Below are positions 985-57,756 of a DNA stretch of 64,000 nucleotides, in pieces. The position numbers were made by a program, and so were the translations under genes. Below the pieces are notes generated by a model. The model worked only from the letters and a program-made list of their open reading frames with translations. It did not search any database and was not told where the DNA came from. Within the stretch, counting starts at the first letter, position 1, and each line of letters begins with the position of its first letter. Source of the DNA: Shigella phage MK-13; sequence record MK509462; one strand, 5' to 3'.

Positions 985-1018
985 GGTGAGGACTCCACTT
1001 AAATAAGATAACTGTTGT

Positions 1019-1026: not shown

Positions 1027-1037
1027 GGAGTTGACAA

Positions 1038-1742: not shown

Positions 1743-1804
1743 TTCTATAACCCGTTCCGAGGGATAATTCGTGAACGGGTAATCCTAAACAATGAGGCTA
1801 TAAC

Positions 1805-2554: not shown

Positions 2555-2574
2555 CCCCACTGTGTGAGGTGTGT

Positions 2575-6254: not shown

Positions 6255-6805
6255 TCACAGCAGGGCATATCAAAAGCCTGCTCGAACTCCAAAAGGCCAC
6301 CAACGTGGCCTACTTTGGGGAAGAGTGGAAGAATGTATGGAGTCAGAACGCAGTCATCAACTCCATCTATCGTGAATGGGCAGAGTTCCTTGACGAAACC
6401 AGCCGCGACTGGAAGGTCTATGGCAACGACGTCGGGTTTCACCATGCGAACGCAGTCTATGAACTGGTGGACGTGGTACACTTCATGCTGTGCTTCATCC
6501 TTATGGACCGCACCAAAGGCGAGATCGAAGAAGAATTCGAAATCCTCGGTGGCCGCGAATTCACCCCATCTGCTTTGGGTGCTGTTGGGCATCGCGGTGT
6601 GACGTATCGTCTTGGGCAGTTCATGAACGAACCTTGTGTCGAGACCCTCATGTTCTTCCTGTCGGCTGCGTGTTCTTACATGGAGATCGATATTGAGACC
6701 TACATGCTGGCGCACAAGCGCAAGAACGATCGCAATCGTCTGCGTGCTGCTGGCGGCGCGGATTACGACAAGTCCACAGAAACCCCTCTGACCCTGGAGT
6801 TCTAA
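6251..6805 (+). CDS. All-alpha NTP pyrophosphohydrolase-like protein (MazG/dimeric dUTPase-like); candidate dUTP/dTTP/dCTP pyrophosphatase
   Basis: Acidic motifs (REWAEFLDE, YELVDVVHF) typical of the MazG/HisE-like fold; ATGA overlap with the dNMP kinase gene. Confidence 0.4.
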   Translation: MITAGHIKSLLELQKATNVAYFGEEWKNVWSQNAVINSIYREWAEFLDETSRDWKVYGNDVGFHHANAVYELVDVVHFMLCFILMDRTKGEIEEEFEILGGREFTPSALGAVGHRGVTYRLGQFMNEPCVETLMFFLSAACSYMEIDIETYMLAHKRKNDRNRLRAAGGADYDKSTETPLTLEF

Positions 6806-8730: not shown

Positions 8731-10158
8731 ATGTTACTCGAATCTGTCGTGCTTTCACAGTTGATTTACAATGAAGATTACCAAAGAAAGATCCTGCCGT
8801 ACCTGAAAGCCGATTATTTTGACAACGAAGGCGAAAAGGTCATCTTTGGCCTGATTGACAGTTATGCCTCAGAGTATAATGCCCGCCCGTCTATCGAAGC
8901 ACTGTCTATCATTCTTGAACGGACAAAGCTGAACGAATATGTGTTTGACCAGGCGGTATCTGCCCTGGAGAACATCAACGACAACACCTTCAATGAAGAG
9001 TGGCTGGCGAAGGAAACAGAGACCTGGGCGCGGCAAAAGGCTGTACATAACGCAATCAAGACCGCCGTCAACATCTATGGGGATGAGAAGCGCAAGGACG
9101 AGATGAACAACATCCCGACCCTGTTGCAGGAAGCCCTGGCGATCCGGTTTGATTCATACCTCGGCCACATCTATTGGGAGATGGCGGCAGAGCAGTATGA
9201 CCATATGAACTCCAACGAGGCCAAGATCCCGTTCGCGGTTGAGATCTTCAACAAGGCGACGCGCGGCGGCGTTGGTAAGAAGACACTGAACATCGTAACA
9301 GGCGCGATCAACGCAGGTAAGACCACAACGCTGATTGACCTGACCGCAGGGTACTCGGAGCAGGGGCTGAACGTCTTTGTATTCACCCTCGAAGTGGCCG
9401 AGAACGTCTGGCGACACCGTCTTGATGCCCGTATCATGCGTCGCGACTTTGAGTCTTTAGAGAAACTCACAAGGCACGAGTACATCGCCACGATAGAGAA
9501 GCTCCGCAGTCGCCAAGATGGTGCACCCAAGGGTGATATCGTCATCAAGGAATATCCGTCCGGCGCTGGGCACACAGGTTTATTCCGCCGCGACATCCTT
9601 GAGTATATCCAGGCGACAGGTCGCGCTCCTGATGTTATCGTTATTGACTATCTTGGTGAAGCTGCTTCCTCGCGCCTGCCTGCCCACCTGATGCAGAACA
9701 CGAACGTCTATTACACGTCTGTGGCTCGTGAGTTTCGTGCGCTGGGATTTGAGTTTGATGTTCCTGTTTGGACTGGTATGCAGTTCAACCGTGAGAATCA
9801 GAATAGCACGGATGGTGGAATCAGTGACCTGGCAGATGCTATCGGTATCCCGAAGGTGGCCGACTTCATCATGGCATTCTATGCTCCTGACGAACTGGCG
9901 GCGGTCAAGAAAGCCCGAGCCTCAATACTCAAGAACCGTTATGCCAACAAGCAAAAGCTGAAGTCATTCCTGTTTGGTATGGACCAAGACAAACAGATCC
10001 TGTTTGACCTGGACTGGAATGAAGTTAAGAAGGACCTGACTGAGGCTGAGGCCAAATATGTTGAGAATGTACACATCAAACATGACCTCAACAAGTCAGG
10101 TTCGGCGGCGAGCGATGAGCAGAAAGCCCAAACAGTCAATAATTGGAATTTCGGCTAA
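8731..10158 (+). CDS. Replicative DNA helicase (T4 gp41-like, DnaB family)
   Basis: Walker A GAINAGKTT; FDSYLGHIYWEMAAEQYDHMNSNEAKIPF closely parallels T4 gp41; ATG 8731 after a GG-rich RBS (track start 8725 is TTG). Confidence 0.85.
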   Translation: MLLESVVLSQLIYNEDYQRKILPYLKADYFDNEGEKVIFGLIDSYASEYNARPSIEALSIILERTKLNEYVFDQAVSALENINDNTFNEEWLAKETETWARQKAVHNAIKTAVNIYGDEKRKDEMNNIPTLLQEALAIRFDSYLGHIYWEMAAEQYDHMNSNEAKIPFAVEIFNKATRGGVGKKTLNIVTGAINAGKTTTLIDLTAGYSEQGLNVFVFTLEVAENVWRHRLDARIMRRDFESLEKLTRHEYIATIEKLRSRQDGAPKGDIVIKEYPSGAGHTGLFRRDILEYIQATGRAPDVIVIDYLGEAASSRLPAHLMQNTNVYYTSVAREFRALGFEFDVPVWTGMQFNRENQNSTDGGISDLADAIGIPKVADFIMAFYAPDELAAVKKARASILKNRYANKQKLKSFLFGMDQDKQILFDLDWNEVKKDLTEAEAKYVENVHIKHDLNKSGSAASDEQKAQTVNNWNFG

Positions 10159-10220
10159 ATTCAATATCGTGGGTCATAGGGTATAATTCTATGATCTGAA
10201 TGTTAAACCAGGAGCACATC

Positions 10221-10556
10221 ATGTTACACAATGATTTTATGGCTGGCCTGGTGCAGGCCACCAAACAGGTGTGCCACACCAAACAAGCGATTGAGCTGAG
10301 TCCGGAGCAGACTCTGGAGTTCTTTGACAATCGTAAAATCTGGGAGGAATATGGCATCGGCATGATCTGCCAAGAGGGTGAACTCGTACAGCTGGATCTG
10401 CCGTCATTCCCCCTTCCAGTGCGCACCAACACAGTGGAATGGTATACGACGGAAGACGGTGTAGAGATCATCCCGAAGTTCCAATATCACTCCATCGTAA
10501 ACTTCTTTTTACGCCGCCGTGGGGCTAATCTGATCCCACAAGGCATGAGATCTTAA
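10221..10556 (+). CDS. Hypothetical protein
   Basis: ORF 10200..10556, start at ATG 10221 after AGGAG. Confidence 0.4.
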   Translation: MLHNDFMAGLVQATKQVCHTKQAIELSPEQTLEFFDNRKIWEEYGIGMICQEGELVQLDLPSFPLPVRTNTVEWYTTEDGVEIIPKFQYHSIVNFFLRRRGANLIPQGMRS

Positions 10557-10571
10557 CAAGAGGAACAACAA

Positions 10572-10892
10572 ATGTCTGTAGAACAAATCGGCTTTTATGC
10601 ACTACCGTCCGATCCCGAGTCTCGCCGCAAGCTGATGGGCGCGATTGAAAACTGCCGCGCCGCCCAGGTACGCATCAAATCGGAACAGACTTTCATTACT
10701 GAGACTCTGGCCGAGCTGGCGAAAGACACGGGCATTAAGGCCAGCGACCTGCGTAAGGTTGTGTCTGACCGCGCGAACGGCACCTACCAGAAAACGATCG
10801 AAACGAGCGAGAAGTATCAGGATCTTTATGAATCCTTGTTCCCGAACGCCAAGCCGGATCGCGACCCAAACGTTGATTCTGCTGAAGAATAA
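10572..10892 (+). CDS. Hypothetical protein
   Basis: 106 aa ORF with RBS (AGAGGAA) upstream. Confidence 0.45.
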   Translation: MSVEQIGFYALPSDPESRRKLMGAIENCRAAQVRIKSEQTFITETLAELAKDTGIKASDLRKVVSDRANGTYQKTIETSEKYQDLYESLFPNAKPDRDPNVDSAEE

Positions 10893-10912
10893 ACGGACCG
10901 AACACCAAGAAG

Positions 10913-10940
10913 CCCAGTCAAGTACTGGGCTTTTTAATTT
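10913..10940 (+). terminator. Rho-independent terminator (gcccagt-caagt-actgggc + TTTTTAATTT)
   Basis: 7-bp GC stem followed by T-run, 20 nt after the 10892 stop. Confidence 0.55.
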
Positions 10941-10948
10941 CAATAACT

Positions 10949-10977
10949 TTACTTTCAAGAATAAAGCGCCTAATATT
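10949..10977 (+). promoter_or_regulatory. Sigma70-like early promoter (-35 TTTACT, 17-nt spacer, -10 TAATAT)
   Basis: aactTTTACTttcaagaataaagcgccTAATATtt about 30 nt upstream of ATG 11008; approximate coordinates. Confidence 0.4.
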
Positions 10978-11007
10978 TAATCTCTATTGAAGAGTTGTTA
11001 CTAAATC

Positions 11008-12213
11008 ATGAGGCTGGAAATGAACGCCAAAACATTCAACATTCCGATCGACAATGAAGAACTGGTCGTTGAGCGACTGAAGAAGCTCGAGCGCACTGCC
11101 GAAAGGCTGGGTGTCCCGTTCCCGACTGTGACTTATGGTGAACCCTTCAAGACCCACACCCGCGACATCACTGGTGAGATTCTCACTCACTGGTGGAAAC
11201 CCGTCGCCCTCGAAGGAGAAGGCATTGACCGCCCGGTTTCTTACGGCGGATGGAAGATTATCGGTCAGTTCAATCACGAATACCCAAAGGTCATCCTGAA
11301 CAAACTGTCTGACAACATCAATGCCGACTTCATCCGCCGCTTCGAGGGAGAGAACGTCTCTTGGTGCCAGCACTGCAATCTGCTCATCAATCGCAAGAAC
11401 ACATATGTGATTGAGAATGAGCAGACCCACACCCAGATGCTGATTGGTAGCACCTGCATGCATCACTACGTACCGCATCAGAAATCGCTTGATGCGATTA
11501 TGTCTTATTATCTGGGCATCACCGAATTCTTCATGCCGGATGAAGACGACCCAGAGGGGATCTATCGCGTCCGGAATGAACGCTTCGCGGACACCCACGG
11601 TTATTTGCGTGCATGCTTCCAGGTGCTGCTGGCTGGAGTGGACATCAAATCAGAACTGTTTGACCAGGTGCTGGGCTACCTGCGTGCTGGGCAGAAGCCA
11701 AAGGCGGGTTCTGATGCCGAGATGTTTCTGATTAAGGCTCGTGAATATCGCGAAGACGCCGAGTCAGAAATGTACCACATGAAGCTCTTCATCAGCGCGC
11801 TGTCTGAATCCAACGAATTCAATGTTCGCTTGAAACGCATGTGTGAACCTGGCTATCACCTCATCAAGGACAATAACACAGTCCGTTGGGGTGCCAAGAA
11901 GTATTACGATTACATCCATCGTCCTCGCACCGACCGCAAGACGGAGAACAAGTGGGTAGCAGAAGTCGGTGAAATGCTGGAAGTCCGCGTCACGTTTGAC
12001 AAGCGTACCTTCCTCTTCTCTAATGAATACGGCGACAGCTACCTGTTCACTTTCAAAACAGCAGAAGGTAATACAATTACCTGGAAGACCTCGTACATGG
12101 ATACCGAGTTCCTGCAGGGCGACATGATCATCCGTGGTCGTGTCAAAGAACTGACCGAGTATAATGGCGTTAAACAAACTCAGGTCACCAGAGCCAAATT
12201 GAGGAAGTTATGA
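11008..12213 (+). CDS. Hypothetical protein with a putative zinc-binding Cys/His cluster
   Basis: 401 aa; WCQHCN...STCMHH cluster; no Toprim or other recognisable catalytic motif, so not called primase. Confidence 0.5.
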   Translation: MRLEMNAKTFNIPIDNEELVVERLKKLERTAERLGVPFPTVTYGEPFKTHTRDITGEILTHWWKPVALEGEGIDRPVSYGGWKIIGQFNHEYPKVILNKLSDNINADFIRRFEGENVSWCQHCNLLINRKNTYVIENEQTHTQMLIGSTCMHHYVPHQKSLDAIMSYYLGITEFFMPDEDDPEGIYRVRNERFADTHGYLRACFQVLLAGVDIKSELFDQVLGYLRAGQKPKAGSDAEMFLIKAREYREDAESEMYHMKLFISALSESNEFNVRLKRMCEPGYHLIKDNNTVRWGAKKYYDYIHRPRTDRKTENKWVAEVGEMLEVRVTFDKRTFLFSNEYGDSYLFTFKTAEGNTITWKTSYMDTEFLQGDMIIRGRVKELTEYNGVKQTQVTRAKLRKL

Positions 12214-12326
12214 ATTTGATTGAGTTTGTTCTGAAGTCGTTCGCCTTTGGTCTGATAGCATGCGGGGTGATTACAGCTATGCTTGTCATCATAGCTCTGA
12301 TCATCCCCTTTAAGAGGAAACGTTGA
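12210..12326 (+). CDS. Small hydrophobic protein (about 38 aa, one predicted TM helix)
   Basis: ATGA overlap with the upstream stop; translation MNLIEFVLKSFAFGLIACGVITAMLVIIALIIPFKRKR; below the ORF-track size cutoff. Confidence 0.3.
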   Translation: MNLIEFVLKSFAFGLIACGVITAMLVIIALIIPFKRKR

Positions 12327-12538
12327 TGGAATGTTCATGCGGAGGGCAGGGTACAAGTGCTTACCTGCCATTCACCACCGTGAAGGAAGCCGAAGCCGCC
12401 GGATTTGCCGTGGACAAGGCTCCCTGTGTAATCGCCACGAAGGATTGCCCGTGCTGTAAGAGGCACTCTCAGGACGTCTTCTACGCCCCTGATGCGCGCC
12501 CGGCTACGGTCAACCTCCTTTCACTGATGAGGAAGTGA
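12323..12538 (+). CDS. Small Cys-rich protein
   Basis: 71 aa with CSCGG...CPCC cysteine pattern; TTG/ATG start. Confidence 0.35.
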   Translation: MMECSCGGQGTSAYLPFTTVKEAEAAGFAVDKAPCVIATKDCPCCKRHSQDVFYAPDARPATVNLLSLMRK

Positions 12539-12539
12539 C

Positions 12540-12890
12540 ATGATCAAGTTTATCAACTGGTTGTTCTGTATACCACCACTGAGCGCCGAAATCCGTTGTC
12601 TAATCGATGCCATTGACGCCGATGACGTTGAATGGAACGGAGAGCGACTGGTTGGGATCGATGCTGTGATCTATAACGGTGTCAAAGTGTATGCTTACAC
12701 GGTCAACAGCTGTTCAGGCTACACAGTCGATATTGGTTATCACACAGATTGCCTGCCTCACCATGAAGCCAAGGCTGTGTACAGAGCCCTCGTCCGACAT
12801 CATAAGCGCCGGATTGATCGCACAGAGGCTCAGAAAGAGCTGAAACACCGTGAAGAAGTCCGCAAGGCTCTGGGATTTCATAACAAATAA
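12540..12890 (+). CDS. Hypothetical protein
   Basis: 116 aa ORF immediately following the upstream stop. Confidence 0.45.
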   Translation: MIKFINWLFCIPPLSAEIRCLIDAIDADDVEWNGERLVGIDAVIYNGVKVYAYTVNSCSGYTVDIGYHTDCLPHHEAKAVYRALVRHHKRRIDRTEAQKELKHREEVRKALGFHNK

Positions 12891-12950
12891 TTCATTAAAC
12901 GATTCACCCCATATAATACATGGGAACTTACACAAACGAGGACCACACTA

Positions 12951-13559
12951 ATGTCACTGAAAAACTTTCTGAAACGCATCTTCACCACTGTTGAAGCCAA
13001 CGTCACCACGGGTCTGGATAAACTGACCGGCACCGAAAAGCGCCTGAACCTGGCCGCTCGCAAGCTGTCTGATGAAATCCGCCGCCTGGAAGAAGCCCGT
13101 GTCGCCAACGTTCGCAACGGCGTCAAGCTGAAGAAGACCGCAGAACAGAACCTGGGTGAAGCTGCCAAGCGCGAAGAAGTCCTGAAGGACGCCATCGCTC
13201 GCGGTGTCACGCCAACCCGCGCCGACGCCCTGATTGTCCTGCATCGCCGTCGTATTGGCGAAGCCCTGTTGGCTCAGGTGAAGGACATCGAAGCAAGCAG
13301 CGACAAACTGAACGGTGCGATCATTCAGCTGGGTGACAAACTGGACGAAGTGAAGTCCAACCTCGAGCTGGTTCGTGTTCAAAAAGAGACGAACGACCTG
13401 GGTCTGGTGCTCCCTGAAGATATCGATTATGCCGCTGGCATGACCACCATCGATATCGATGCCATCCTGCGCGAAACCGAAATCGCTGATTCGAGCTACT
13501 CAGCTAACAGCCCGTCGTCTATCGAAGCTGACAACTACCTCGCCAGCCTGAGCAAATAA
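12951..13559 (+). CDS. PspA/IM30-like coiled-coil protein (candidate membrane-stress or remodelling protein)
   Basis: N-terminal amphipathic FLKRIFTTVEANV resembles the PspA N-terminus (FSRFADIVNANI); rest is heptad-rich coiled coil; inference only. Confidence 0.4.
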   Translation: MSLKNFLKRIFTTVEANVTTGLDKLTGTEKRLNLAARKLSDEIRRLEEARVANVRNGVKLKKTAEQNLGEAAKREEVLKDAIARGVTPTRADALIVLHRRRIGEALLAQVKDIEASSDKLNGAIIQLGDKLDEVKSNLELVRVQKETNDLGLVLPEDIDYAAGMTTIDIDAILRETEIADSSYSANSPSSIEADNYLASLSK

Positions 13560-43357: not shown

Positions 43358-43933
43358 TCAGCCTTTGAAGTTGATCGGTTTCTGAACCCCAGCGTCGAAC
43401 GCGGCCTGGGTACGGGTATCGCTCACCACCTGACAGGTCTTGTCAAGATCGATGCGCGGGTAGCCAAACATGCCAGCGATCAACGAACCAGGGAACTGAG
43501 CCAGCTTGGTTTCGTACATTGCGCAGATATCCAGCTTCTTGGTCTGACTGATGCGGAATTCATCACGCCCAGAACTGATCACCACCTGGATCTCTTTGTA
43601 CAGGCTGGAATCGAACTGAATGTTCTGCTCCTGGATCCACTGCATAACAGCCTTGGAACCATCAGCGCCATAACGCCCTTCGAACGTGCCTTTGATCACT
43701 TCCTTCAGGCCGTCTTTGTACATGTCAGGAATCTGCGCCGTCTCCTGAACTTTGAGCGTGTAGTTGCTCAGGTAGTTCTCTGAGTCTTTGTTGAACTTCT
43801 TGACCTGTTGCTCAGTGCGGTTGAAGTCGTTGAAGTAGCTGATGACTGTGCCGATGCCGACAATCACCATGCCCAGCAAAGCCAAACCAACGATCCAACC
43901 TGTTGCAATACCCTTAGATTGAGACATTCTCAC
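43358..43933 (-). CDS. LemA-like membrane protein
   Basis: N-terminal TM helix then YFNDFNRTEQQVKKFNKDSENYLSNY...; overall resemblance to the LemA family; inference. Confidence 0.35.
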   Translation of the reverse strand: MRMSQSKGIATGWIVGLALLGMVIVGIGTVISYFNDFNRTEQQVKKFNKDSENYLSNYTLKVQETAQIPDMYKDGLKEVIKGTFEGRYGADGSKAVMQWIQEQNIQFDSSLYKEIQVVISSGRDEFRISQTKKLDICAMYETKLAQFPGSLIAGMFGYPRIDLDKTCQVVSDTRTQAAFDAGVQKPINFKG

Positions 43934-43945
43934 TTCCTCTTTTGA

Positions 43946-45061
43946 TTAAAAATTAAACGGATAACGACGACGGCCACCATTGTACTCCATTCGCTGCAAT
44001 ATGAAAATTGCGGTGAACGGCAAGCAGCCCAGCAGAACAACAACCACAACTTCCCAGGTCTTGAGTTCCCGCCACTTCAGGTACTCCATTTCCTTCATCT
44101 CAACGCGGTTGTAGCCTTTGGTGATGTTGGCGACAACGTCTGTCATGACGCCGATACCCATATCATGTCCAATCAGGTCCATACCGTTGCGGGAGTGAAG
44201 TTCACGGTTGTGCATACCATCAGCGAACGAAGTGCTCTTACCCCAATTGATCTTCAGGTCTTTGCTGATGTCGGTGACGACAATGACGTCGTTCTTTTTA
44301 CCGCCATCCCATGCATAGACCAAGCCCTGGAAATATTCAACTGGCTGACCGGATGTCACAACCCAGACGATGTTCACCTGCTTGGCCGCGCCCAGCTTCT
44401 TCAGAACATCATTCAGATAGTCGTTCCAGTATGTGGTTGGCAAAGCCAGGCCGGACACGTTCAGGACACGAGTGACACGATAGTAGTCATAGACCTCAGG
44501 GTACTTGGGAATCTTGTCTTTGAAGCGCTCAGCAAACTGCTGGTCTGAGCGGGAGAACAGAGAGTCCTTGTTGCCCAGCACATAGTTCATGTAGGAGTGC
44601 TCACGGGCGGCTGGCTCACCAATCTGAACCTGCGCCCAGCGCGGCGGCTGGCCAAGACCACGGCGATCAATGCGGTCAATCGTCAGATTACCAACAGTCG
44701 TCAGCACATCCCAGTCCACGTCATACGAATGCTCATAGCAGGTGCTGCAATGGCGAGTACGGGTACAGGACTTGCTGCTACCGGAACCGGAGCATGATGT
44801 GGTGTAGTAGCAGTTGCACTGATACGAGTGCTCGCAGCTCACCTTATTGCGCTCCTTGCCAGTGACGTATCCGTTCAGGATCTCAACGTCCCCTGAACTG
44901 CCGAGGGAGAACGCAGCATAAGCCCCGACCTGAATCAGACAGGACAGCACCACCACAATCGCCGTCGCAATCAGAGTCTCTTTCGGCTCATGGGTCTTGC
45001 GGTGGTAGACCACAAACAGGATGGCCAGTATCAATGGCACACCAAACAGGAGATAGATCAT
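43946..45061 (-). CDS. Cys-rich membrane protein (TM helices at both ends)
   Basis: 371 aa; N-terminal TM segments, Cys-rich block SCEHSYQCNCYYTTSCSGSGSSKSCTRTRHCSTCYEH, C-terminal TM helix. Confidence 0.45.
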   Translation of the reverse strand: MIYLLFGVPLILAILFVVYHRKTHEPKETLIATAIVVVLSCLIQVGAYAAFSLGSSGDVEILNGYVTGKERNKVSCEHSYQCNCYYTTSCSGSGSSKSCTRTRHCSTCYEHSYDVDWDVLTTVGNLTIDRIDRRGLGQPPRWAQVQIGEPAAREHSYMNYVLGNKDSLFSRSDQQFAERFKDKIPKYPEVYDYYRVTRVLNVSGLALPTTYWNDYLNDVLKKLGAAKQVNIVWVVTSGQPVEYFQGLVYAWDGGKKNDVIVVTDISKDLKINWGKSTSFADGMHNRELHSRNGMDLIGHDMGIGVMTDVVANITKGYNRVEMKEMEYLKWRELKTWEVVVVVLLGCLPFTAIFILQRMEYNGGRRRYPFNF

Positions 45062-45736: not shown

Positions 45737-45903
45737 TACTTTTTCTTCAGCTCGTCCAGTTTGGCTTCGATTTGTTCCAGGATGTCTTTACCCTTCTGAA
45801 CAATCACTTCACCGTCTTGCGCGTGTTTGCGGAATACCAGAGCGCCAGCTACGAAGCCGACAACCACACCAGGAAGCGCATAAACCAGCAGATCTTGTAA
45901 CAT
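45737..45903 (-). CDS. Small membrane protein (about 55 aa)
   Basis: Hand translation MLQDLLVYALPGVVVGFVAGALVFRKHAQDGEVIVQKGKDILEQIEAKLDELKKK; below the track size cutoff. Confidence 0.3.
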
Positions 45904-45939: not shown

Positions 45940-47172
45940 TCAGCGTTTCAAGAGTGCCATGAGGTTGACGCTGCTGGGCTTCGACTTGTCTTCAGGCTTG
46001 ACAGCTGTCTTCGGGCGTTCACACACCTCAGATGGTTCCCAGCGCGTACCCTTTTGCAGGTGCCAAATGTGCAGAGGGATGCCAGTATCAAAGAACACAG
46101 GCATCTTCCACTTCTGGACGCCTGGAACGTGCCCTGCAGGAGCCTTTTCGCATAACAGGGTATCTGGTAACCAGAGTGAACGGGCTTCCCAGAGCGCTGC
46201 ACAGGAGTACTCCGGCCAGATGCGTTCCATGTAGTCGATCTCATCCCAGGTACGCTCGGCATCCCACCCAATGTAACGGGTATTCTTCTCACGGAAGAAC
46301 TTCTTCAGCCAGCATGCACCGGAGGTTTCAAAGTTCAGGCGATTGATGAACGTCAGATGCCCGAACTCAGCCACGCATTCCTTGAACGCCTGTTCAAGGT
46401 CGGCCTCAAGGATGTCACACTCTTCATCAGTGATAGGACAACCATTGATCTTTTTCTTCCCATGCTTGGTCACCCAATCATCACGGTTGGACAAGAACGC
46501 CGCGCCGTTGCGGTTGGACTCGCTGCCATCACGATCACGCAGCATGAAGCCAGGGACGTCGATATCCCACATATTGCCAAACACCATGTTCAGAGCTTCC
46601 AGGAAGTTCCAGGCGCTCAGGCGGCCGAAGTATTTCCAGGACATCGCCGTTTCCCACAACTTAGTGAACTGGTCGCCCTGGGGCTTGGTCTCCAACATCG
46701 GTCGGAATGCTTCCATCTGGGAGCGCCCTGCCAGCCAGTCAATGTAGGACTGAACACATGGGATCATCTTCGACTTGCGATAGCGGCAGTCGGTATCGAA
46801 GCGCATGCGCTCAAAGTTCAGGTTGTACCAATCAGAGAAGCGCTGCATCTCTTCTTTGGACTGAGGGGGTACAGGGAACTCACTGTAGATTGTCCATGGA
46901 CCGATGGCGTTGTAACAGCAGCCCCAAAGGAATGCCATCCAGATTTTGCGCTCGATCTTCTCAAGCTGCGTGATGCCTTCTGTGACTTCGATCGCATAAT
47001 CCATCAGACGCATCTGCTGGTTGTGCTCTTCGGTGTAGGACAGCGCCTCCACCCAAGCCTTGAGCAGGTACATGCGATTCTCAGGCTTGCGATAATCAAC
47101 AGCCAGGTCAATCGGGTACTTCCATTCAGCCGGGGGTGTATAGCCCGTCGGCATTTTAGATAGATGCGTCAT
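45940..47172 (-). CDS. Large conserved-looking hypothetical protein (Trp/Cys-rich); candidate enzyme of the nucleotide/DNA-modification module
   Basis: 410 aa with no recognisable motif; sits between the kinase/HAD genes and the small-protein cluster. Confidence 0.45.
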   Translation of the reverse strand: MTHLSKMPTGYTPPAEWKYPIDLAVDYRKPENRMYLLKAWVEALSYTEEHNQQMRLMDYAIEVTEGITQLEKIERKIWMAFLWGCCYNAIGPWTIYSEFPVPPQSKEEMQRFSDWYNLNFERMRFDTDCRYRKSKMIPCVQSYIDWLAGRSQMEAFRPMLETKPQGDQFTKLWETAMSWKYFGRLSAWNFLEALNMVFGNMWDIDVPGFMLRDRDGSESNRNGAAFLSNRDDWVTKHGKKKINGCPITDEECDILEADLEQAFKECVAEFGHLTFINRLNFETSGACWLKKFFREKNTRYIGWDAERTWDEIDYMERIWPEYSCAALWEARSLWLPDTLLCEKAPAGHVPGVQKWKMPVFFDTGIPLHIWHLQKGTRWEPSEVCERPKTAVKPEDKSKPSSVNLMALLKR

Positions 47173-47647
47173 CTTTCGCTTCCTCTTCAGGAGCCAGCTG
47201 AATATCTTCCGGTTTCACGAACCCCATCGGGCGTTCCCACATATCGATAAAGCGACGGTCAGCGGTCACGAACCACAGACGGGCTGCAGTGTGGGTCTTA
47301 CCCGAGATGAACATCTGGGCATTCGTCTGGGTGCGGAACGGAGCCGCTTGCAGCCACTGACCGAAGTCTTTGGACGACGGGTTGGCGTTCAGCTGGAACT
47401 GAGGGATGACACAGTTCTTTTCAGGGATCAGGCGCACAGCCGTAATGTGCTGGGCGTTTCCGGTGTAGTCAATTGCAACGGCCACAGCATTGCGAGGGAT
47501 TTCGATTTTCATTTTGGTTCCTTGAATATTTTGTAACCAGCAGCGCCGATAGACATCACCGCGCCAATACAGTACATCACAGTCACGTTCAACTTCTCTG
47601 AGGTTGTTAAGTCCAGAGGGGTGAAATGATAGGCCAGGGCAGCGCAC
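47156..47647 (-). CDS. Hypothetical protein
   Basis: 163 aa ORF; true start may be the internal MKIEIP. Confidence 0.35.
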   Translation of the reverse strand: MRCPGLSFHPSGLNNLREVERDCDVLYWRGDVYRRCWLQNIQGTKMKIEIPRNAVAVAIDYTGNAQHITAVRLIPEKNCVIPQFQLNANPSSKDFGQWLQAAPFRTQTNAQMFISGKTHTAARLWFVTADRRFIDMWERPMGFVKPEDIQLAPEEEAKDDASI

Positions 47648-47708
47648 ATTGAAACGGCTGCCATAACCAGACCGACGAATAACAGATAATTAGACAACCG
47701 TTTCATGA

Positions 47709-48626
47709 TCACCCCTTCTTCATCAGGTCAAGGAGAGAGCGCGACGCTGCCTTCGGTGCTTCCGGCTGGGCACTCGCCTTGGTTTTAGTTTTAGATGCCT
47801 TCTGCGGCTTCTCAGGCACTCTGTGCGCCAAAGGATCATTACCGCCGACCTCACGGGTCATCGGATTGGTTTCGCAGTAGGCGTAGAAGTCTTTGGTGTG
47901 CATGTCAACATCGCGCAGTTCAGAGCGTGTCTGATGACAAATCGCATTACCCACAACCCACAGCGGGGCGTCGTATGGGAGCACCGCCAACTCGGACTGC
48001 TGTTTGGTCGTGAACTCCTGGGTGTTGGCCTCTGGTGCTTTATACAGGATATCCTGTCCGCTGTAATCATCAACAGCCACAGTGAAGCCCAGCGTCAACA
48101 TTTCGGTCTTCGATTTCTCAAACTCCTTGGAGTAAGATTCGTTGCGCGACCAGCCGGAGTCCCCTGCTTCTTTACCAGAGCGACCACGGATGCGGGCATC
48201 GTACTGATAGCGGTCGGGGTACGCAAAGTACAGCAGCGCCAATGATTCAATCGGATAATTCTTGAACATCCACTCAGGACGCCATTTGTCCGACAGCATG
48301 AGGGGTTCGCCCTCGCACACCAGAGTGTAACCCTGCGCCAGCCAGCCCTTGACCAGATCACGGGCGATATCACCCGAGCCTGTGGCAGCATGAATGGCGT
48401 CCATGGAAGTCCAGGAAGCCAGGCCGGATTTGTTGGACACAGTGTACTGGCCGACGAAGATCAACTTCAGCTCTTCGAATTTCAGGCCAAACGGGCGCGT
48501 CTTATCACCAATGGTGTAGGTGAGTTCGGTAGGCTCCAGCTTCGTACGGAGCCATTCGATGAACTGTACAACACGAGTACCCTTACCCGTGCCGCTGGTT
48601 CCTTTGATTACGATGATCTTTGCCAT
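47709..48626 (-). CDS. P-loop kinase with adenylate/NMP-kinase-type Walker A (GTSGTGKGT)
   Basis: N-terminal KIIVIKGTSGTGKGTRV resembles the GxPGxGKGT P-loop of NMP kinases; 305 aa. Confidence 0.45.
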   Translation of the reverse strand: MAKIIVIKGTSGTGKGTRVVQFIEWLRTKLEPTELTYTIGDKTRPFGLKFEELKLIFVGQYTVSNKSGLASWTSMDAIHAATGSGDIARDLVKGWLAQGYTLVCEGEPLMLSDKWRPEWMFKNYPIESLALLYFAYPDRYQYDARIRGRSGKEAGDSGWSRNESYSKEFEKSKTEMLTLGFTVAVDDYSGQDILYKAPEANTQEFTTKQQSELAVLPYDAPLWVVGNAICHQTRSELRDVDMHTKDFYAYCETNPMTREVGGNDPLAHRVPEKPQKASKTKTKASAQPEAPKAASRSLLDLMKKG

Positions 48627-48931
48627 TATACAGCATCCTCAATACGCCAGCTCACGCCGCCCATCCATGGTGCCCAGAATACAGCAACCTGTGGGCGGCC
48701 ATTCTCTTCAAACTTCACTTTATACTGGTCGTCGAAGTTATAGAAGATTTCATCCGCTTCAGAGCGCTGACCGATCTCCACCAGTACGTCATGAAGAGCC
48801 TTGGCTGCGCCGATAGGAGTCGGAGTCTCCTGCTGGCGAATGAAGTTGTTGACATGGATAATCACGCCATCCATATCGCTATCACCGGAACGCTTGTCTG
48901 GGGTTTCCCCAAACTTGGATTGTTCTTGCAC
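48626..48931 (-). CDS. Hypothetical protein
   Basis: 101 aa ORF. Confidence 0.35.
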   Translation of the reverse strand: MQEQSKFGETPDKRSGDSDMDGVIIHVNNFIRQQETPTPIGAAKALHDVLVEIGQRSEADEIFYNFDDQYKVKFEENGRPQVAVFWAPWMGGVSWRIEDAV

Positions 48932-48940
48932 GATGTCCTC

Positions 48941-49720
48941 CTATCGGACGTATTGATAATGACCAATCAAGCGGTTCACCACTTCAACAATATTGTGATT
49001 CAGGAAGTCGAAGTGGTTCTGGCCTTCTACTGGTTTAATATAAAGCATATCTTCCGAGTTCGAAAGATCCAGTTTTTCATAATTGCCCTGAGGAACAAAG
49101 ATGACGAAGATATTGTTCAGGCCGCACGGCTCAACATACTTCGGATTGTCATCAATCAAGACATCGCCTGCCAGCAGATGCTTTTCGTCAGTACTGACAA
49201 ATCCGTTGAAGATACCAGGGAACTTGTCGTAGACAAACTGGCGCTTGCTGCGCTCGTGTTCCGGCTCACACTTGGACACTGCGATGAATTCAACATTGTC
49301 AAAGTCTTCGAGCAGAATCTTCTTCAGATTCACCAGGAACTCGTAAGCACCAGGAAGCGGGTTCATCTTGGCGTACAGGTCAGGGCGACGCCACCAGTCC
49401 ATAGGATCACGCCCTGTAGGAGCATACATCCATTGCCCAGCGAGGTACACGCGGCGTATCAACCACGCCGGATGTGCACGTTCTCGCATCAGAATAGCCA
49501 GGTCGCCAGCATGAGCCATATAGCACTCTTTGGTGATCGGCTGGAACTGATATGACTTATGTTCCCCCGTAGCAATAGCAGCGGCAGCGATGTTCTCTTC
49601 GTTGAACCACTGCACCCAAGGGGAGAGGCTGTCGACCAGCGTCAGGTCAACATCCACGAGGACGCGATACAGACCACCGACCTTTGATTTCATATCATAG
49701 AGACAGACCAGGTTGTTCAT
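48941..49720 (-). CDS. HAD-superfamily phosphatase-like protein (possible 5'(3')-deoxyribonucleotidase or polynucleotide phosphatase)
   Basis: HAD motif I-like VLVDVDLTLVDS near the N-terminus. Confidence 0.4.
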   Translation of the reverse strand: MNNLVCLYDMKSKVGGLYRVLVDVDLTLVDSLSPWVQWFNEENIAAAAIATGEHKSYQFQPITKECYMAHAGDLAILMRERAHPAWLIRRVYLAGQWMYAPTGRDPMDWWRRPDLYAKMNPLPGAYEFLVNLKKILLEDFDNVEFIAVSKCEPEHERSKRQFVYDKFPGIFNGFVSTDEKHLLAGDVLIDDNPKYVEPCGLNNIFVIFVPQGNYEKLDLSNSEDMLYIKPVEGQNHFDFLNHNIVEVVNRLIGHYQYVR

Positions 49721-50067
49721 TTGTCTTCCTCAACTTTGTCGTAGCCCGTAGCAACGCACTGTTCTTCGGTACAATCCGCATACAGAACAACAGACGCCTG
49801 CTTCACGTAGGTGGTGCAGTGGTAGGTTTCGTCTTCCTGGATGGAATCGTCATAGTTGCAGACAGTTTGGAGCGGACCTGGGGTGGTGTTATCCAGCGCT
49901 GCATGTGCCTTGATGGTGTCTTCCATCTTGGCCACGGCTTGTTCGTTGGTGAACGTCGGCGCGTCGAGGTCAGGGGTTGACACGACGTCCGCCAGGGTAG
50001 AGCATGCGGTGGTAGAGAAAGCCAGAGCGCACACCAGAAGAATCTTATTGAGTTTCATTTCAATCAC
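49717..50067 (-). CDS. Putative lipoprotein
   Basis: Signal peptide with lipobox-like LAFSTTAC; 116 aa. Confidence 0.45.
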   Translation of the reverse strand: MIEMKLNKILLVCALAFSTTACSTLADVVSTPDLDAPTFTNEQAVAKMEDTIKAHAALDNTTPGPLQTVCNYDDSIQEDETYHCTTYVKQASVVLYADCTEEQCVATGYDKVEEDK

Positions 50068-50094: not shown

Positions 50095-50124
50095 ATTATA
50101 TCCCCCTTTGGTTTATTGAATCAA
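50095..50124 (-). promoter_or_regulatory. Sigma70-like promoter (-35 TTGATT, 18-nt spacer, -10 TATAAT inside a GGGGG/CCCCC hairpin) upstream of the lipoprotein gene
   Basis: Minus strand aaggTTGATTcaataaaccaaagggggaTATAATtccccc; overlaps the polymerase stop; approximate coordinates. Confidence 0.45.
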
Positions 50125-53120
50125 CCTTTCTTCTTTTGCATCATGGCAAGAAGGTTCACACGACGCTTGTGTGACCAGCCGACCACGTCAAGGATGGACT
50201 GAATCGGGTCGATGAAGGACTTCTCAAAGGCTGTGTGGTAATCCACCCATTTACCCATACCCAGTTCCTCGGGGAAGAACTCAGGATATGCGAAGTAATT
50301 CTGGCCAAACGGGTTGCCATTCTTCAGCAGTACCATGTTGACCTTATCACCCGACTCAATCATTGGCAGGCCGAGGTCTTCGTTCTTCTCAACCAGACGG
50401 TTGTAACCCACACAAGCCTTGGCAGCGTAGTGAGCACCAGAGATGAACGAGCCGTCGGCGGCCACACACTTCTCTATGTCGGACACACCGGATGCCTTGG
50501 CGATATCGTCTACAGAGAGCTTCATGTACTCCTCTTTGTACTGGGAGATGAGCGTCTGTACTTCCTCTTCTGTGCCGAGCAGGATCTTCTCATAGCACTT
50601 GACAAGGCGCTCACGACACCATTCCGGCGTGGTGGACTTACGGGCTTCCAGACCTTTGAACTTGATCTTCGGCTTCTCGTACTTGATACCCTCACTGTCG
50701 TACACGGCCATGGCATACATCTTCTTGGCTCGCCAGACGGCAGCTGATGCAATTACTTCACGCTCCCACACCATGCGCTGTTCAAATCCGTTCATGGTGT
50801 TACACAGAAGCTGTGCCCACTCATTGGTCTTCGGCTGGTAGTTGTCTTTGATCCATTGGTCGATATTATCAACCATAGCATGATGGTCAGTAACATCAGG
50901 CCACAACTGCTTGACAAGACGCTCAATGCAGATGTAGTTGGAGTCGGTATCACCCGCGATGACGAAGTCCTGGCCTGTCGTGCCGCACAGCTTGTTCAGA
51001 TAGTCATCGGTGTAGCGCTTGTTCCACTTGTTGATCAGCTGACCGGACGTTGTGATGGCTTCGGCGATGTTGAGGTTGAAGTACTCTTTGAACCAGACGT
51101 TTGAGATCGCGCCATAGCCCGCGTTCATCAAGATCTTCAGACCTTGCTGTAGGGTCTCTTGAGCAACGCCCAGATCTTCCCACTTCTTCATCACTTCGGT
51201 CAGTGCATCAAGATCGATGTTCTTGTGCTCTTCATACCACTCTGGATCGTAGTAGCGGGACTTCATCGCAGACTCAAGATGGAAGTCACCCTTCGACATC
51301 TCTTTACACCATCCAGCCCACTGCTCGTACTTCAGCCCCTTGGCTTTCTCTACTTTACGGTCGCTGTAGATGCCGCGCATGATTTCAGACAGGAACGACA
51401 TCTTCTCGTTGCTGAAGAACTGAACGTTCGGCGTGAAGGACACGTTGTAGCGGCGCAGGGTTTCAAAGTGGAACTCACCCAGGGCAACCAGTTCATCAAC
51501 AACCTGCAGGCGTTCGTCAATCGCACGCAACAGCTTATCGTGAAGGGCTTTCATCAACCGACGTTTGTGCATCGGTGTTGCCATGTTATTCATCTGAGCA
51601 GCCAGCTCTTCACACATAGCCTCAATGATCTCACGGCGCTGGTGTTTGTCGCCAACGATAGTCTCAGGACCGAGGTTGTATTGCTGGATGATGTGAGGGT
51701 AGAGGGAGTTCAAGTCCTCAGAGAAGACCCAGAAGTAGATTCCTGGTGTCACCTCCATGACGTATGCGCCCTCAAAATCGGTCGGACCATCGTATACACG
51801 CTGGATCTTAGGCACTATCCCCTTCTCATACAGACGATAGTAGCACATGGCCAGCCACGGAGCCACAGTTCCCAGGCCGTCTTCATAGTTGGACTTGGTG
51901 CGGTACGCAAGGACGAACATCAGCTGAAGCAAACGCAGCTTCTGTTCTAGACGCCACACCAGCTTGACGTCCTTGATACCATATCGGGTGTGTTTGGCAT
52001 AGTCGTTGAAGTACAGGTCAAAGAGCGACTTGCTCTCACTGTAGTCCATCTTCTTCTCACCCAGCTCACAGTAAGCAATCCAGTCAAGAGAGTAGCGCTC
52101 ACGGGTGGTGTACGTGTGCTTCTTGTAGATCTGCATATAATCGAGCATAGGACAGCCCACGAACTGATACGTCGTGATATCGCCCTTCTTATCGCGAATG
52201 ATACGCTTCTTGATGACACCCCATGGGCTGAGGCGGTTGGTTTCGGCTTCGCCCAGTACCTGGTTCATGCGCTCAACAAGATACGGGCTATCGAACGTTT
52301 CAATGTTCCAGCCTGTCCAGCCGTCGAACTGACGCTGTGACCAGAAGTCAAGGAAAGATCGCAGCAGATCCTGCTCGGTGACAAACTCCTTGTACTCCAC
52401 CTCAAGTCCACCGATCTCCGCGTCTTCTGGATCGTATCTGAACTTCGCACGATCCTTCGCGCACGGCATACCCCACACCATGAACTTATTGGTCGCCATG
52501 TCCTGAAGCTGGATAAGCGTGATAGGGAACGCCGCATTCATGTCCTGGGTGATCTTGCCATTGCTATCAATGATAGGGAACTGGTCGGTCACGTTGTTGC
52601 TGATAAAGGAACTGGGGAAGTGCTCACGGATGAAGTCATGGTTGGCCAGTACCTGCTGATGGAAGCGGCGGATGCGTGCCTCGCTACCTTTGAACGTCTG
52701 CTGCTCAATAGTCGGATGAGGGAATGGACCCTTGGTCATCTCCCCATCTTTCCACCCGGCGGTGAACACTTCGATATCGAGGTTGGCGATATGGATATTG
52801 GAGTAATCCGGCTCGATCTTCCCAGGAAAGCTGTGGGCGATGAACTGGTATGCATAATCGGTCTGCCCGTAAATGGCTGCACCCTGGACTTCCTTATACT
52901 CCTCAAGGTAGTTGTCGGCAGTGCGCATGTCAGGGAACTTCTTAGAGACCAGGGGTTCGTTGAGCAAGCCGACCTTTTCAACATTTGAATAATCAGCCGT
53001 GGGTAAATAGAGAGTGGGTTCGAATTTCTTTTTCAACAGACGGCGATTACCCATGTCATCTGCGATTCGAATCAACAGGTCATTGCCCCGGCGGGCAACG
53101 TTCGTATAGAAAACGGTCAT
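50121..53120 (-). CDS. DNA polymerase, family B (T4 gp43-like)
   Basis: 999 aa; motif C IAGDTDSNYI, exonuclease and polymerase regions collinear with T4 gp43. Confidence 0.9.
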   Translation of the reverse strand: MTVFYTNVARRGNDLLIRIADDMGNRRLLKKKFEPTLYLPTADYSNVEKVGLLNEPLVSKKFPDMRTADNYLEEYKEVQGAAIYGQTDYAYQFIAHSFPGKIEPDYSNIHIANLDIEVFTAGWKDGEMTKGPFPHPTIEQQTFKGSEARIRRFHQQVLANHDFIREHFPSSFISNNVTDQFPIIDSNGKITQDMNAAFPITLIQLQDMATNKFMVWGMPCAKDRAKFRYDPEDAEIGGLEVEYKEFVTEQDLLRSFLDFWSQRQFDGWTGWNIETFDSPYLVERMNQVLGEAETNRLSPWGVIKKRIIRDKKGDITTYQFVGCPMLDYMQIYKKHTYTTRERYSLDWIAYCELGEKKMDYSESKSLFDLYFNDYAKHTRYGIKDVKLVWRLEQKLRLLQLMFVLAYRTKSNYEDGLGTVAPWLAMCYYRLYEKGIVPKIQRVYDGPTDFEGAYVMEVTPGIYFWVFSEDLNSLYPHIIQQYNLGPETIVGDKHQRREIIEAMCEELAAQMNNMATPMHKRRLMKALHDKLLRAIDERLQVVDELVALGEFHFETLRRYNVSFTPNVQFFSNEKMSFLSEIMRGIYSDRKVEKAKGLKYEQWAGWCKEMSKGDFHLESAMKSRYYDPEWYEEHKNIDLDALTEVMKKWEDLGVAQETLQQGLKILMNAGYGAISNVWFKEYFNLNIAEAITTSGQLINKWNKRYTDDYLNKLCGTTGQDFVIAGDTDSNYICIERLVKQLWPDVTDHHAMVDNIDQWIKDNYQPKTNEWAQLLCNTMNGFEQRMVWEREVIASAAVWRAKKMYAMAVYDSEGIKYEKPKIKFKGLEARKSTTPEWCRERLVKCYEKILLGTEEEVQTLISQYKEEYMKLSVDDIAKASGVSDIEKCVAADGSFISGAHYAAKACVGYNRLVEKNEDLGLPMIESGDKVNMVLLKNGNPFGQNYFAYPEFFPEELGMGKWVDYHTAFEKSFIDPIQSILDVVGWSHKRRVNLLAMMQKKKG

Positions 53121-56457: not shown

Positions 56458-57756
56458 TCAGGAAGGGGTGAAGCCGTTTACGGGTACTGTTTCAGGGATA
56501 GCCAGCTCAGGGCATGCAGCCTTCATTGGCTCGATGTACGGCTTGCTACCCACAATCCAGAACAGAGTGTTCTCATTGAGCAACTCGGGCTTGTTCTGCT
56601 GGATCCAGGTCATGACCTTGCCTTCATAGCGAGGGTGCAACTCAATATCACCCCACTGATAATCCATCAGGTCATTGTAACGAACCCAGTTGGTGGTGTG
56701 AAGATCCCAATGGTGTACCTCAAAACGAGGAAGCGTTATCTCTGGCTCGTCCTTCTGCCTGATACCACTTAGGAGGCCAGCCAGCGAAACGCTCTTAGAG
56801 GCATGCTGAAGCTCCTTCTTGCCGTGGACATAGTCTGGGTTGTCGTGATAACGGCGGGTGAAGTCGACAATGTGAGGCAGATTGGCTTGCTTACCAATGA
56901 TACGCAGGCGGCTCTCAATGAAGTCCAGGCGGTTTGGTCCAATCCCAATCAGATAAACACGCTTCAGATTAGGCTTAGGATGCATCGCCAGCCCGGTCAG
57001 GATGCTTGTGCATGAGTTGCATGATCCAGCAGGGATGATCAGATCGGTGATGTGGTCTGGGATGTTAGCAACCTGCTCGCCACCCAGCATATGGAAGCCA
57101 GCGATGCGCTCTGGGGAGTGAGCCGTGTGGTCCAGGGTGATACCATATTCCAGGTAGTACGCCTTTGGATTCACCTGCTCAATGAGTTTCTTACAGCGCG
57201 GCTGGATCGTGCTGTTGTAACCCGAGCCGACGAAGTTGAACTCACTGCCGAACCAGGCGCTCATCTCAACCATCCCATGGTTCATGCAAGTGGTTGGTTT
57301 GGTCGCGCCGAGTACAGTGGTTGTCTTTCCGCCGAAGTGCCGAGAGACTGCCGTCGCCATAGGGGATTGCGGACTACCAACGACAGTACCGTGGATGATG
57401 TCAGGGGAACCTCCGGCCTTCAGGTGCTCAACCATCAGCCAGATGGCCTGGCGCAACTTACTGCCATTGATGCCCTGCTGACCATTTGCGTAATTGGACA
57501 GCGGTGCAAAGTAATCTTCACGCTTGAACCAGACCTGCTGATTGGTTTCGGGGTTGGCAACGAGTTCGCACGGGGTGTGCTTGTAGAGATAGTCTTCCCA
57601 GTGGATGACATTGCGGTCAAGCGAGAGAGCATTGAAGATAGTTTTGCGGTCGCCCATAAGGGCATCCGGGGTATATGGAGCAAAGATAAAAGGGCTGGCG
57701 TTTTCTTCTATCGCCTGTTTGGTGATATCTATAAGTTTCTGAGTTTTGTCGTTCAT
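56458..57756 (-). CDS. PLP-dependent enzyme, fold type II (tryptophan synthase beta / ACC deaminase-like superfamily)
   Basis: WFKREDYFAPLSNYANGQQGINGSKLRQAI parallels the KRDDL...GGNKxRKLE lysine motif region of ACC/D-cysteine desulfhydrase-type enzymes; 432 aa. Confidence 0.5.
   Translation of the reverse strand: MNDKTQKLIDITKQAIEENASPFIFAPYTPDALMGDRKTIFNALSLDRNVIHWEDYLYKHTPCELVANPETNQQVWFKREDYFAPLSNYANGQQGINGSKLRQAIWLMVEHLKAGGSPDIIHGTVVGSPQSPMATAVSRHFGGKTTTVLGATKPTTCMNHGMVEMSAWFGSEFNFVGSGYNSTIQPRCKKLIEQVNPKAYYLEYGITLDHTAHSPERIAGFHMLGGEQVANIPDHITDLIIPAGSCNSCTSILTGLAMHPKPNLKRVYLIGIGPNRLDFIESRLRIIGKQANLPHIVDFTRRYHDNPDYVHGKKELQHASKSVSLAGLLSGIRQKDEPEITLPRFEVHHWDLHTTNWVRYNDLMDYQWGDIELHPRYEGKVMTWIQQNKPELLNENTLFWIVGSKPYIEPMKAACPELAIPETVPVNGFTPS

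Follow-up and report, generated by a model that had tools for sequence, protein, structure and literature searches.

The closest described counterpart of the locus considered here is the pathway with which Salmonella phage ViI (a Kuttervirus) makes 5-(2-aminoethoxy)methyldeoxyuridine (5-NeOmdU) in its DNA. In that phage, gp243 and gp67 phosphorylate 5-hydroxymethyldeoxyuridine (5-hmdU) within DNA to give 5-phosphomethyldeoxyuridine (5-PmdU); purified gp247 transfers L-serine onto 5-PmdU to form O-serinyl-thymidine (O-serinyl-T), a conserved Cys and a neighbouring Glu being essential; and gp226, a pyridoxal phosphate (PLP) enzyme, decarboxylates O-serinyl-T to 5-NeOmdU (PMC8989533, PMC5889632). 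According to a 2024 review, modification genes are conserved across the Ackermannviridae (PMC11721090). In phage T4, gp43, gp33 and gp55 have "highly similar" C-termini, which serve as interchangeable sliding-clamp-binding motifs carried on flexible linkers (PMC2988020, PMC7892883). We analysed a stretch of 64,000 nucleotides from Shigella phage MK-13 (record MK509462; hereafter the window), in which a module of three genes next to the DNA polymerase gene had been flagged by a sequence-only reading. The module consists of already known ViI-type hypermodification genes, and two of its products end in a peptide shared with the phage polymerase. We propose that the enzymes working on 5-hmdU in the DNA of T4-like and Ackermann-type phages (kinase, transferase and a helical partner of family PF18723) are clients of the sliding clamp by virtue of the polymerase's C-terminal peptide. 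We put the probability of this proposal at about 0.6.

MK-13 is an Ackermannviridae phage of the subfamily Aglimvirinae, close to Agtrevirus. The DNA of the flagged region matched 276 phage records and was 90-95% identical to that of Aglimvirinae (94.8% to Shigella phage Gloob; also SKML-39, Ag3 and EspM4VN). For SW16-7, a near relative, the pathway has already been annotated in the same way in print (PMC10458263). The three open reading frames (ORFs) are present on the minus strand as described, and so is the adjoining polymerase gene, from which they lie downstream. By direct translation, residues 9-17 of the 305-aa protein read GTSGTGKGT (the P-loop motif) and residues 23-27 of the 259-aa protein DVDLT; as stated, the 410-aa protein is rich in Trp (21 residues, 5.1%) and Cys (11 residues, 2.7%). 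Full-length homologues of each of the three proteins, 79-96% identical, occur in more than 270 Ackermannviridae genomes, and the ORFs are therefore real genes as opposed to chance reading frames. The operon to which they belong is larger than the flagged span. It comprises eight packed genes running from 50067 to 45739 with intergenic gaps of -17 to +36 nt, in the order DUF7292 lipoprotein, HAD protein, DUF7254 protein, kinase 2, two small ORFs, transferase and 55-aa ORF, and is bounded by a sigma70-like promoter (50124 to 50095) and a terminator with a 16-bp stem (45710 to 45675). The gene order from polymerase to transferase is identical in ViI. The features of the region are as follows.

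50121..53120, minus strand: family-B DNA polymerase (PolB), 999 aa; its C-terminal peptide VNLLAMMQKKKG (50124..50159) is the reference tail.
49717..50067, minus strand: putative DUF7292 lipoprotein, gene 1 of the operon (Pfam PF23964, E = 1.5e-54; 91% identity to ViI orf237).
48941..49720, minus strand: HAD phosphatase-like protein of the NT5C-type 5'(3')-deoxyribonucleotidase family (Pfam PF06941), 259 aa, without the putative clamp tail.
48626..48931, minus strand: DUF7254 protein, 101 aa, conserved in the operon (Pfam PF23912, E = 6e-54; 75% identity to ViI orf240).
47709..48626, minus strand: 5-hmdU DNA kinase 2 (HMUD2, Pfam PF18747), 305 aa, orthologue of ViI gp243.
48576..48602, minus strand: Walker A motif (P-loop) GTSGTGKGT of kinase 2, from direct translation.
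47712..47834, minus strand: C-terminal appendage of kinase 2, a Lys/Pro/Ala-rich linker followed by SLLDLMKKG, a putative clamp-binding motif.
47509..47706, minus strand: orf244 homologue, hydrophobic, 65 aa, poorly conserved (34% identity to ViI).
47156..47512, minus strand: orf245 homologue, 118 aa, phrog_4163.
45940..47172, minus strand: amino-acid:DNA transferase (ADDT, formerly aGPT-Pplase2; Pfam PF18724), 410 aa, orthologue of ViI gp247.
46312..46329, minus strand: catalytic motif E282-T283-S-G-A-C287 of the transferase (metal-binding Glu/Thr, Cys nucleophile).
45943..46017, minus strand: C-terminal appendage of the transferase, linker residues 386-401 (RPKTAVKPEDKSKPSS) followed by VNLMALLKR (402-410), a putative clamp motif.
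45739..45903, minus strand: orf248 homologue, 55 aa, last gene ahead of the terminator (91% identity to ViI orf248).

The sequence-only reading could place no motif in the 410-aa protein, offered it as an undescribed component and named the aGPT-Pplase-type families as those to compare it with. The comparison identified it: residues 49-296 matched PF18724 (formerly aGPT-Pplase clade 2) with E = 2e-61 and 208 bits, against a cut-off of 26.2. The component is not new, being the orthologue of the purified serine:DNA transferase gp247 of ViI, to which it is 90% identical over its full length (BLASTP; 40 substitutions). Residues E282, T283, C287, W288, K290 and K291 were invariant across 31 diverse homologues. 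In hhalign comparisons E282, T283 and C287 fell on the "ET..C" of M6 gp51, and their equivalents in PaMx11 gp46 are Glu243, Thr244 and Cys247 (PMC11472151). Placing M6 gp51 relied on Pfam domain coordinates, hhalign and the paper describing the crystal structure 8z2m, as MAFFT misplaced this protein and a hidden Markov model built from five sequences missed it. An AlphaFold model computed from the homologue alignment (predicted local distance difference test score, pLDDT, 90.6; predicted template modelling score, pTM, 0.87) has the all-alpha fold of HhH DNA glycosylases, and a fold search returned the solved structure of PaMx11 gp46, 8z2m, as its closest match. The latter came up by fold search alone; a sequence search of the Protein Data Bank (PDB) gave no match for the transferase or kinase 2. 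Relative to the glycine:DNA transferases PaMx11 gp46 and M6 gp51, the MK-13 protein shows about 11% sequence identity, is some 120 aa longer and has an extra C-terminal helical region followed by linker and tail, the last being absent from M6 gp51. The donor chemistry differs as well, glycine being N-linked in PaMx11 and M6 and serine O-linked in the ViI type.

The 305-aa protein matched PF18747 (HMUD2) from end to end (E = 7e-161, 534.7 bits; residues 1-304 on positions 1-298 of a 298-position profile). Its Walker A motif is intact and it is 86% identical to ViI gp243, which suggests that it phosphorylates 5-hmdU within DNA; the 90% identity to purified gp247 likewise suggests that the 410-aa protein transfers serine onto 5-PmdU in DNA. 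Almost all of the 5-NeOmdU pathway is encoded in the window, the homologue of gp160 (PF18723) alone falling outside it. Both kinases, the transferase and the PLP decarboxylase are 86-91% identical to those of ViI, with the same catalytic residues and C-terminal tails, although the two phages belong to different subfamilies (MK-13, with ~95% DNA identity to Gloob, to the Aglimvirinae) and orf244 has diverged (34%). The genes outside the operon are these.

3980..4642, plus strand: 5-hmdU DNA kinase 1 (HMUDK_HMUD1, PF18748, E = 3e-107), orthologue of ViI gp67 (88% identity), without tail.
4642..5661, plus strand: thymidylate-synthase-family enzyme (PF00303, E = 9e-16; 76% identity to ViI orf66), presumed deoxyuridylate (dUMP) hydroxymethylase (role according to PMC5889632).
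5685..6251, plus strand: deoxynucleoside monophosphate (dNMP) kinase (tblastn against ViI orf65, 92%).
6251..6802, plus strand: NTP pyrophosphohydrolase of the dUTPase_2 family (Pfam dUTPase_2; tblastn against ViI orf63, 62%).
56458..57756, minus strand: PLP-dependent decarboxylase, orthologue of ViI gp226 (91% identity; O-serinyl-T to 5-NeOmdU, function according to PMC8989533), without tail.

A dCMP deaminase and MazG are encoded in the window as well.

The 259-aa protein scored 34.9 bits against PF06941 (NT5C; curated cut-off 24.8) and is 79% identical to ViI orf239. Residues D23, D25, T27, K159, K180, D190 and D191 of HAD motifs I-IV were invariant in 17 homologues, and the fold is nearest to those of known deoxyribonucleotidases, not of other HAD classes. 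It is thus an NT5C-type 5'(3')-deoxyribonucleotidase-like protein and not the phosphatase of a polynucleotide kinase. The human mitochondrial and cytosolic 5'(3')-deoxyribonucleotidases, mdN and cdN (Pfam NT5C), prefer dUMP and thymidylate (dTMP). With these and with structure 3bwv the MK-13 protein shares the HAD core, the cap topology and all catalytic motifs at about 20% identity; it differs in a cap insertion of about 40 residues, including a beta-hairpin (88-101). A motif, KCEPEHERSK, is invariant in the phage clade only. Most likely the protein removes dTMP (or dUMP) from the free nucleotide pool. It would thereby complete an exclusion of thymidine triphosphate (dTTP) that a dTTPase/dUTPase starts, as has been described for PhiW-14 and for a related phage with hypermodified DNA (PMC13458397). 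Vibrio phage D509 and Pseudomonas phage Cygsa01 retain the linkage of the HAD gene to those of kinase 2 and transferase, although PolB lies elsewhere in Cygsa01. In PhiW-14, the product of g35, which occupies the HAD slot between PolB and kinase, had no Pfam match.

Inspection of C-termini in the window revealed a likeness among PolB (..RRVNLLAMMQKKKG), kinase 2 (..SRSLLDLMKKG) and the transferase (..SSVNLMALLKR). Only four of the 797 six-frame stop-to-stop segments of the window end in this way, the three just named and a 70-aa ORF, whereas 1000 shuffles gave 0.27 on average and never more than 3. In the whole ViI genome the same four proteins were the sole matches among 1794 segments (shuffle mean 0.81, maximum 5 in 500). 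ViI gp160, of family PF18723, ends in ..GSVNLLDRLKKPE. With the PolB tail as sole query, hypermodification proteins ranked at the top in each genome (ranks 2-5 of 1490 in D509), the transferase coming third in the window. In both the transferase and kinase 2 the hydrophobic peptide stands at the extreme C-terminus behind an unstructured linker, as expected of a sliding-clamp-binding motif (SCBM): in the transferase model pLDDT falls below 50 at residues 388-399, after which a short helix (404-408) ends the chain, and the kinase 2 tail sits on its Lys/Pro/Ala-rich linker. An origin of the tails in a DNA repeat was rejected since synonymous codons differ among them. The additional match is the following feature.

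12326..12538, plus strand: 70-aa Cys-rich ORF (MECSCGG...CPCC; CxCGG...CPCC) ending in VNLLSLMRK like PolB (86% identity to ViI orf53; no Pfam family).

An analogous 99-aa CxCGG ORF lies upstream of the ligase gene in D509 and has the ..KRLW tail of that lineage.

Across eight lineages the peptide differs, while within each it stays common, so that the tails of PolB, kinase 2 and transferase covary by lineage. The tails found in phage genomes and in metagenomic lineages (L024 to L027) were as follows.

D509: PolB ..ARKLW, kinase 2 ..TKKLW, transferase ..TRKLW, PF18723 protein ..TKRLW, Cys-rich 99-aa ORF ..TKRLW, gp33 homologue ..TRKLF.
Cygsa01: kinase 2 ..TTKNVFDLF, transferase ..TTNDLMGFFQ, PF18723 protein ..TTKSVLDLF.
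PhiW-14: PolB ..KLGAFFV, gp33-like protein ..SLGGFAAT, kinase gp37 ..GLGGFFKG, transferase gp109 ..GLGSFFR, gp72 ..TLAQFAP.
L027: PolB ..SALW, two kinases ..NDLW and ..SSLW, transferase ..NALW, PF18723 protein ..NSLW.
L024: acidic, T4-like tails ..SLFDF, ..SLEDFFS and ..EFFDIFH.
L025 and L026: ..FF and ..FD variants.

A tail identical in kind to that of the phage's own replicative polymerase was found in the window, ViI, D509, PhiW-14, L024 and L027. The KLW ending occurred three times in D509 against 0.16 expected. In Cygsa01 the three proteins listed were the only ones of 1222 segments with the tail in the 89 kb examined; PolB was not found within these ~89 kb. The gp33 homologues of D509 (..KTRKLF) and PhiW-14 (..TTSLGGFAAT), whose genes have no counterpart inside the window, end in the lineage tail too. 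No shared tails were found in M6, a siphovirus with PolA, and the most distant transferase homologues have no tail at all. Enzymes of the nucleotide pool (HAD protein, thymidylate-synthase-like enzyme, dUTPase, dNMP kinase) never have the tail.

Because the C-termini of T4 gp43, gp33 and gp55 are interchangeable clamp-binding motifs, we infer that, through their tails, kinase 2, transferase and PF18723 partner dock on the phage clamp. As in the T4/RB69 motifs (C-termini of gp43, gp33, gp55 and DNA ligase), a short hydrophobic end follows a flexible linker and is common to polymerase and clients, and some lineages have the near-canonical forms ..SLFDF and ..VFDLF. The differences are that the putative clients are base-modifying enzymes and that the enterobacterial variant is basic, unlike the acidic T4 motif. 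A polymerase-type tail shared by hypermodification enzymes appears to be undescribed; clamp docking of modification enzymes was mentioned neither in the hypermodification papers nor in what literature searches returned. Several observations weigh against the proposal or parts of it. Clamp binding is deduced from comparative sequence only, and the clamp gene lies outside the window. Scored against the PolB tail, kinase 2 comes no higher than a tied 5th-8th place in the window. Neither kinase 1 nor the PLP decarboxylase has a tail, yet both act on DNA. In ViI itself the gp33-like tail (..LLKGELKSKKLI) is just loosely similar and that of the sigma factor is unmatched. The final base of MK-13 is predicted from the 86-91% identity to ViI enzymes, the HAD protein was dispensable for in-vitro reconstitution of the ViI pathway, and the neighbourhoods of two distant HAD homologues (P0062 and P0063), searched for linked hmdU genes, held none, so that linkage of the HAD gene to the pathway is not universal. 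Kinase 1 may work in concert with the tailed PF18723 protein, given that SP10 gp186 and a 615-aa L026 protein are both fusions of this pair; the L026 fusion is itself without a tail.

The shared peptide could be real and still not be a clamp ligand, serving instead as a degradation tag, as some other replisome signal (for single-stranded DNA-binding protein or helicase loader) or as a localisation signal. The basic character of the enterobacterial version (VNLLxxMxKK), set against the acidic T4 motif, and its absence from the ViI sigma factor speak for such a role. Yet the peptide stands at the extreme C-terminus of a family-B polymerase, just where T4 and RB69 polymerases bear their clamp-binding peptide; the gp33 homologues of D509 and PhiW-14 share it, canonical ..SLFDF and ..VFDLF versions occur in some lineages, and it is missing from a phage with PolA and no annotated T4-type clamp. 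These points make a non-clamp function somewhat unlikely. A different doubt concerns the amino acid used. Specificity in the transferase family is set by a few pocket residues, with clades that differ (glycine, serine, putrescine, diaminopropane), and 40 substitutions separate the MK-13 enzyme from gp247, so that a donor other than serine, and a final base other than 5-NeOmdU, could be imagined. That outcome seems very improbable given the 90% identity to gp247, the location of the changes mostly in the C-terminal linker and on the surface, a partner PLP decarboxylase 91% identical to gp226, and the family-wide conservation of modification genes reported in 2024 (PMC11721090).

T4 PNKP joins a P-loop kinase and a HAD phosphatase. 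The sequence-only reading had left two options for the module, the transferase half of a base-modification pathway or a split polynucleotide kinase/phosphatase (PNKP). The former stood, borne out by the gp247 and gp243 orthology and the Pfam families ADDT and HMUD2; the latter fell. Both types of motif, P-loop and HAD, are present, as an enzyme pair healing DNA or RNA ends in the manner of T4 Pnk would need, but the domains matched neither the kinase family of PNK nor the phosphatase family of PNKP, and this barely credible reading can be taken as already effectively refuted. An alternative in which the HAD protein works at the level of DNA, by removing the phosphate of unused 5-PmdU or processing another phosphorylated intermediate and so setting the modified fraction (~40%), draws on the genetic linkage with kinase 2 and transferase that its gene shows in three divergent lineages, also where PolB is no longer nearby, and on its translational coupling inside the same operon. 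We consider it rather improbable: the protein has the fold and motifs of mononucleotide 5'(3')-deoxyribonucleotidases, including a closed cap, and is without the C-terminal tail by which DNA-acting enzymes stand out in all lineages examined; its distant homologues have no adjacent kinase or transferase, and the five ViI proteins that sufficed for reconstitution do not include it.

Taken jointly, a ViI-type thymidine hypermodification core, removal of dTMP by the HAD protein, and a polymerase-tailed, clamp-recruited set of kinase 2, transferase and PF18723 partner form a reading that we hold to be highly probable. Going by work on orthologues, the thymidylate-synthase homologue would make 5-hmdU monophosphate, which would then be phosphorylated and incorporated by the phage PolB instead of T. 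The 5-hmdU DNA kinases (kinase 2, and kinase 1 at 3980..4642) would convert 5-hmdU in the polymer to 5-PmdU. The transferase would flip the base out, Cys287 would attack C6 and the phosphate would leave; the hydroxyl of free L-serine would add to the exocyclic methylene to give O-serinyl-T, and the PLP decarboxylase (56458..57756) would turn this into 5-NeOmdU. Meanwhile the HAD protein would most likely destroy dTMP so that dTTP hydrolysed by the dUTPase/dTTPase-like enzyme is not recycled, which would favour incorporation of 5-hmdU. The tails, on their flexible linkers, would recruit kinase 2, transferase and PF18723 partner to clamps left on new DNA, and modification would thereby follow the replication fork.

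If so, up to three enzymes could ride on each trimeric clamp behind the fork as a mobile assembly line, which would account for the ability of a multi-step "post-replicative" hypermodification to keep up with replication; clamp riding may also shape the partial, patterned substitution of ~40% of thymines. Docking would supply a mechanism by which phages finish a chemically complex DNA modification in time to evade host nucleases, and the known phage clamp clients would come to include base-modifying enzymes. In eukaryotes, the coupling of DNMT1 to PCNA links maintenance methylation to replication, and the arrangement proposed here would be its counterpart in a prokaryotic virus: a cysteine-dependent enzyme modifying C5 of a pyrimidine, held on the replication clamp by a short linear motif. 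Proteins and clamps are unrelated in the two cases and the parallel is an analogy only; the transferase mechanism has been likened to that of DNMT1 (PMC11472151). A sequence rule would also follow for uncharacterised modification clusters, namely that DNA-acting enzymes end like the polymerase. The NT5C-type HAD protein would gain a defined place as the irreversible step of dTTP exclusion. The module itself is a textbook feature of Ackermannviridae genomes, and the practical value of identifying it lies in correct annotation, the genes still being labelled "hypothetical", "guanylate kinase", "homing endonuclease" or "thioredoxin" in many GenBank records.

Misleading annotations were met in the public records of Gloob, SKML-39, ViI, M6 and PhiW-14. 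The labels given to kinase 2 are "putative homing endonuclease" (in Gloob) and "guanylate kinase", and the HMUD1-type kinases ViI gp67, M6 gp54 and PhiW-14 gp37 appear as "terminase small subunit". The DUF7254 protein is a "putative thioredoxin" in Gloob, a label that is unfounded because its orthologue in the window contains no Cys. The 497-aa phrog_15209 ("endonuclease") matches the kinase over its C-terminal part and may include endonuclease-kinase fusion calls. A SegD-like homing endonuclease lies between DUF7254 and kinase (~48626) in Ag3, P46FS4, RPN242, AV101 and Vibrio phage D509; none is found at this junction in the window, Gloob or SKML-39. The DNA polymerase of RPN242 is annotated as two coding sequences split by an inserted ORF (9220..13402), and is one intact 999-aa ORF in the window. 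Identity to ViI is only 34% for the orf244 homologue (47509..47706) and 60-91% for its neighbours; in D509, kinase and transferase have no ORFs between them. Searches of NCBIfam and PADLOC gave zero matches for the three flagged proteins, and a defence or anti-defence assignment of the module was dropped for want of PADLOC matches.

Further proteins with polymerase-type tails, candidate clamp clients, were noticed in PhiW-14: a PD-(D/E)XK exonuclease (L018, 26496..27356) ends in ..TTTQGLGGFFA and a DUF4326/NrdA.1-like protein (L019, 31188..31487) in ..PRGLGAFFT. In ViI (NC_015296, 97862..98284, minus strand) the "GTP-binding domain" protein orf176 ends in ..KPKTKRLL, resembling the ..KTKRLW of D509 rather than the VNLL type of ViI, and in the PolB of D509 an RVNLFAL stretch occurs internally, ahead of the KLW end, a hint that the motif may be bipartite or shifting. 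In L027 (8531..9988) the kinases are two tandem HMUD2 paralogues, each with the ..LW tail of the lineage. In L024 (8616..11734) the transferase directly follows a Tet/JBP-family dioxygenase and precedes a kinase of the Ploopntkinase3 type; gene calling over the 21-kb locus examined gave no thymidylate-synthase-like gene, consistent with 5-hmdU being made by oxidation of T in DNA. Mycobacterium phage Heath encodes at its genome end a distant ADDT-family protein (25% identity; 1..2826 of locus L007) in a context other than the hmdU pathway, adjoining ParB-like and queuine tRNA-ribosyltransferase (DpdA-like) genes. Finally, two genes conserved in Ackermannviridae lie downstream of the MK-13 operon (43358..45061, minus strand): one for a Cys-rich protein of 371 aa whose N- and C-termini are hydrophobic (phrog_2087; called "host lysis protein" in ViI), the other for a protein of 191 aa whose counterpart in RPN242 is annotated as LemA.

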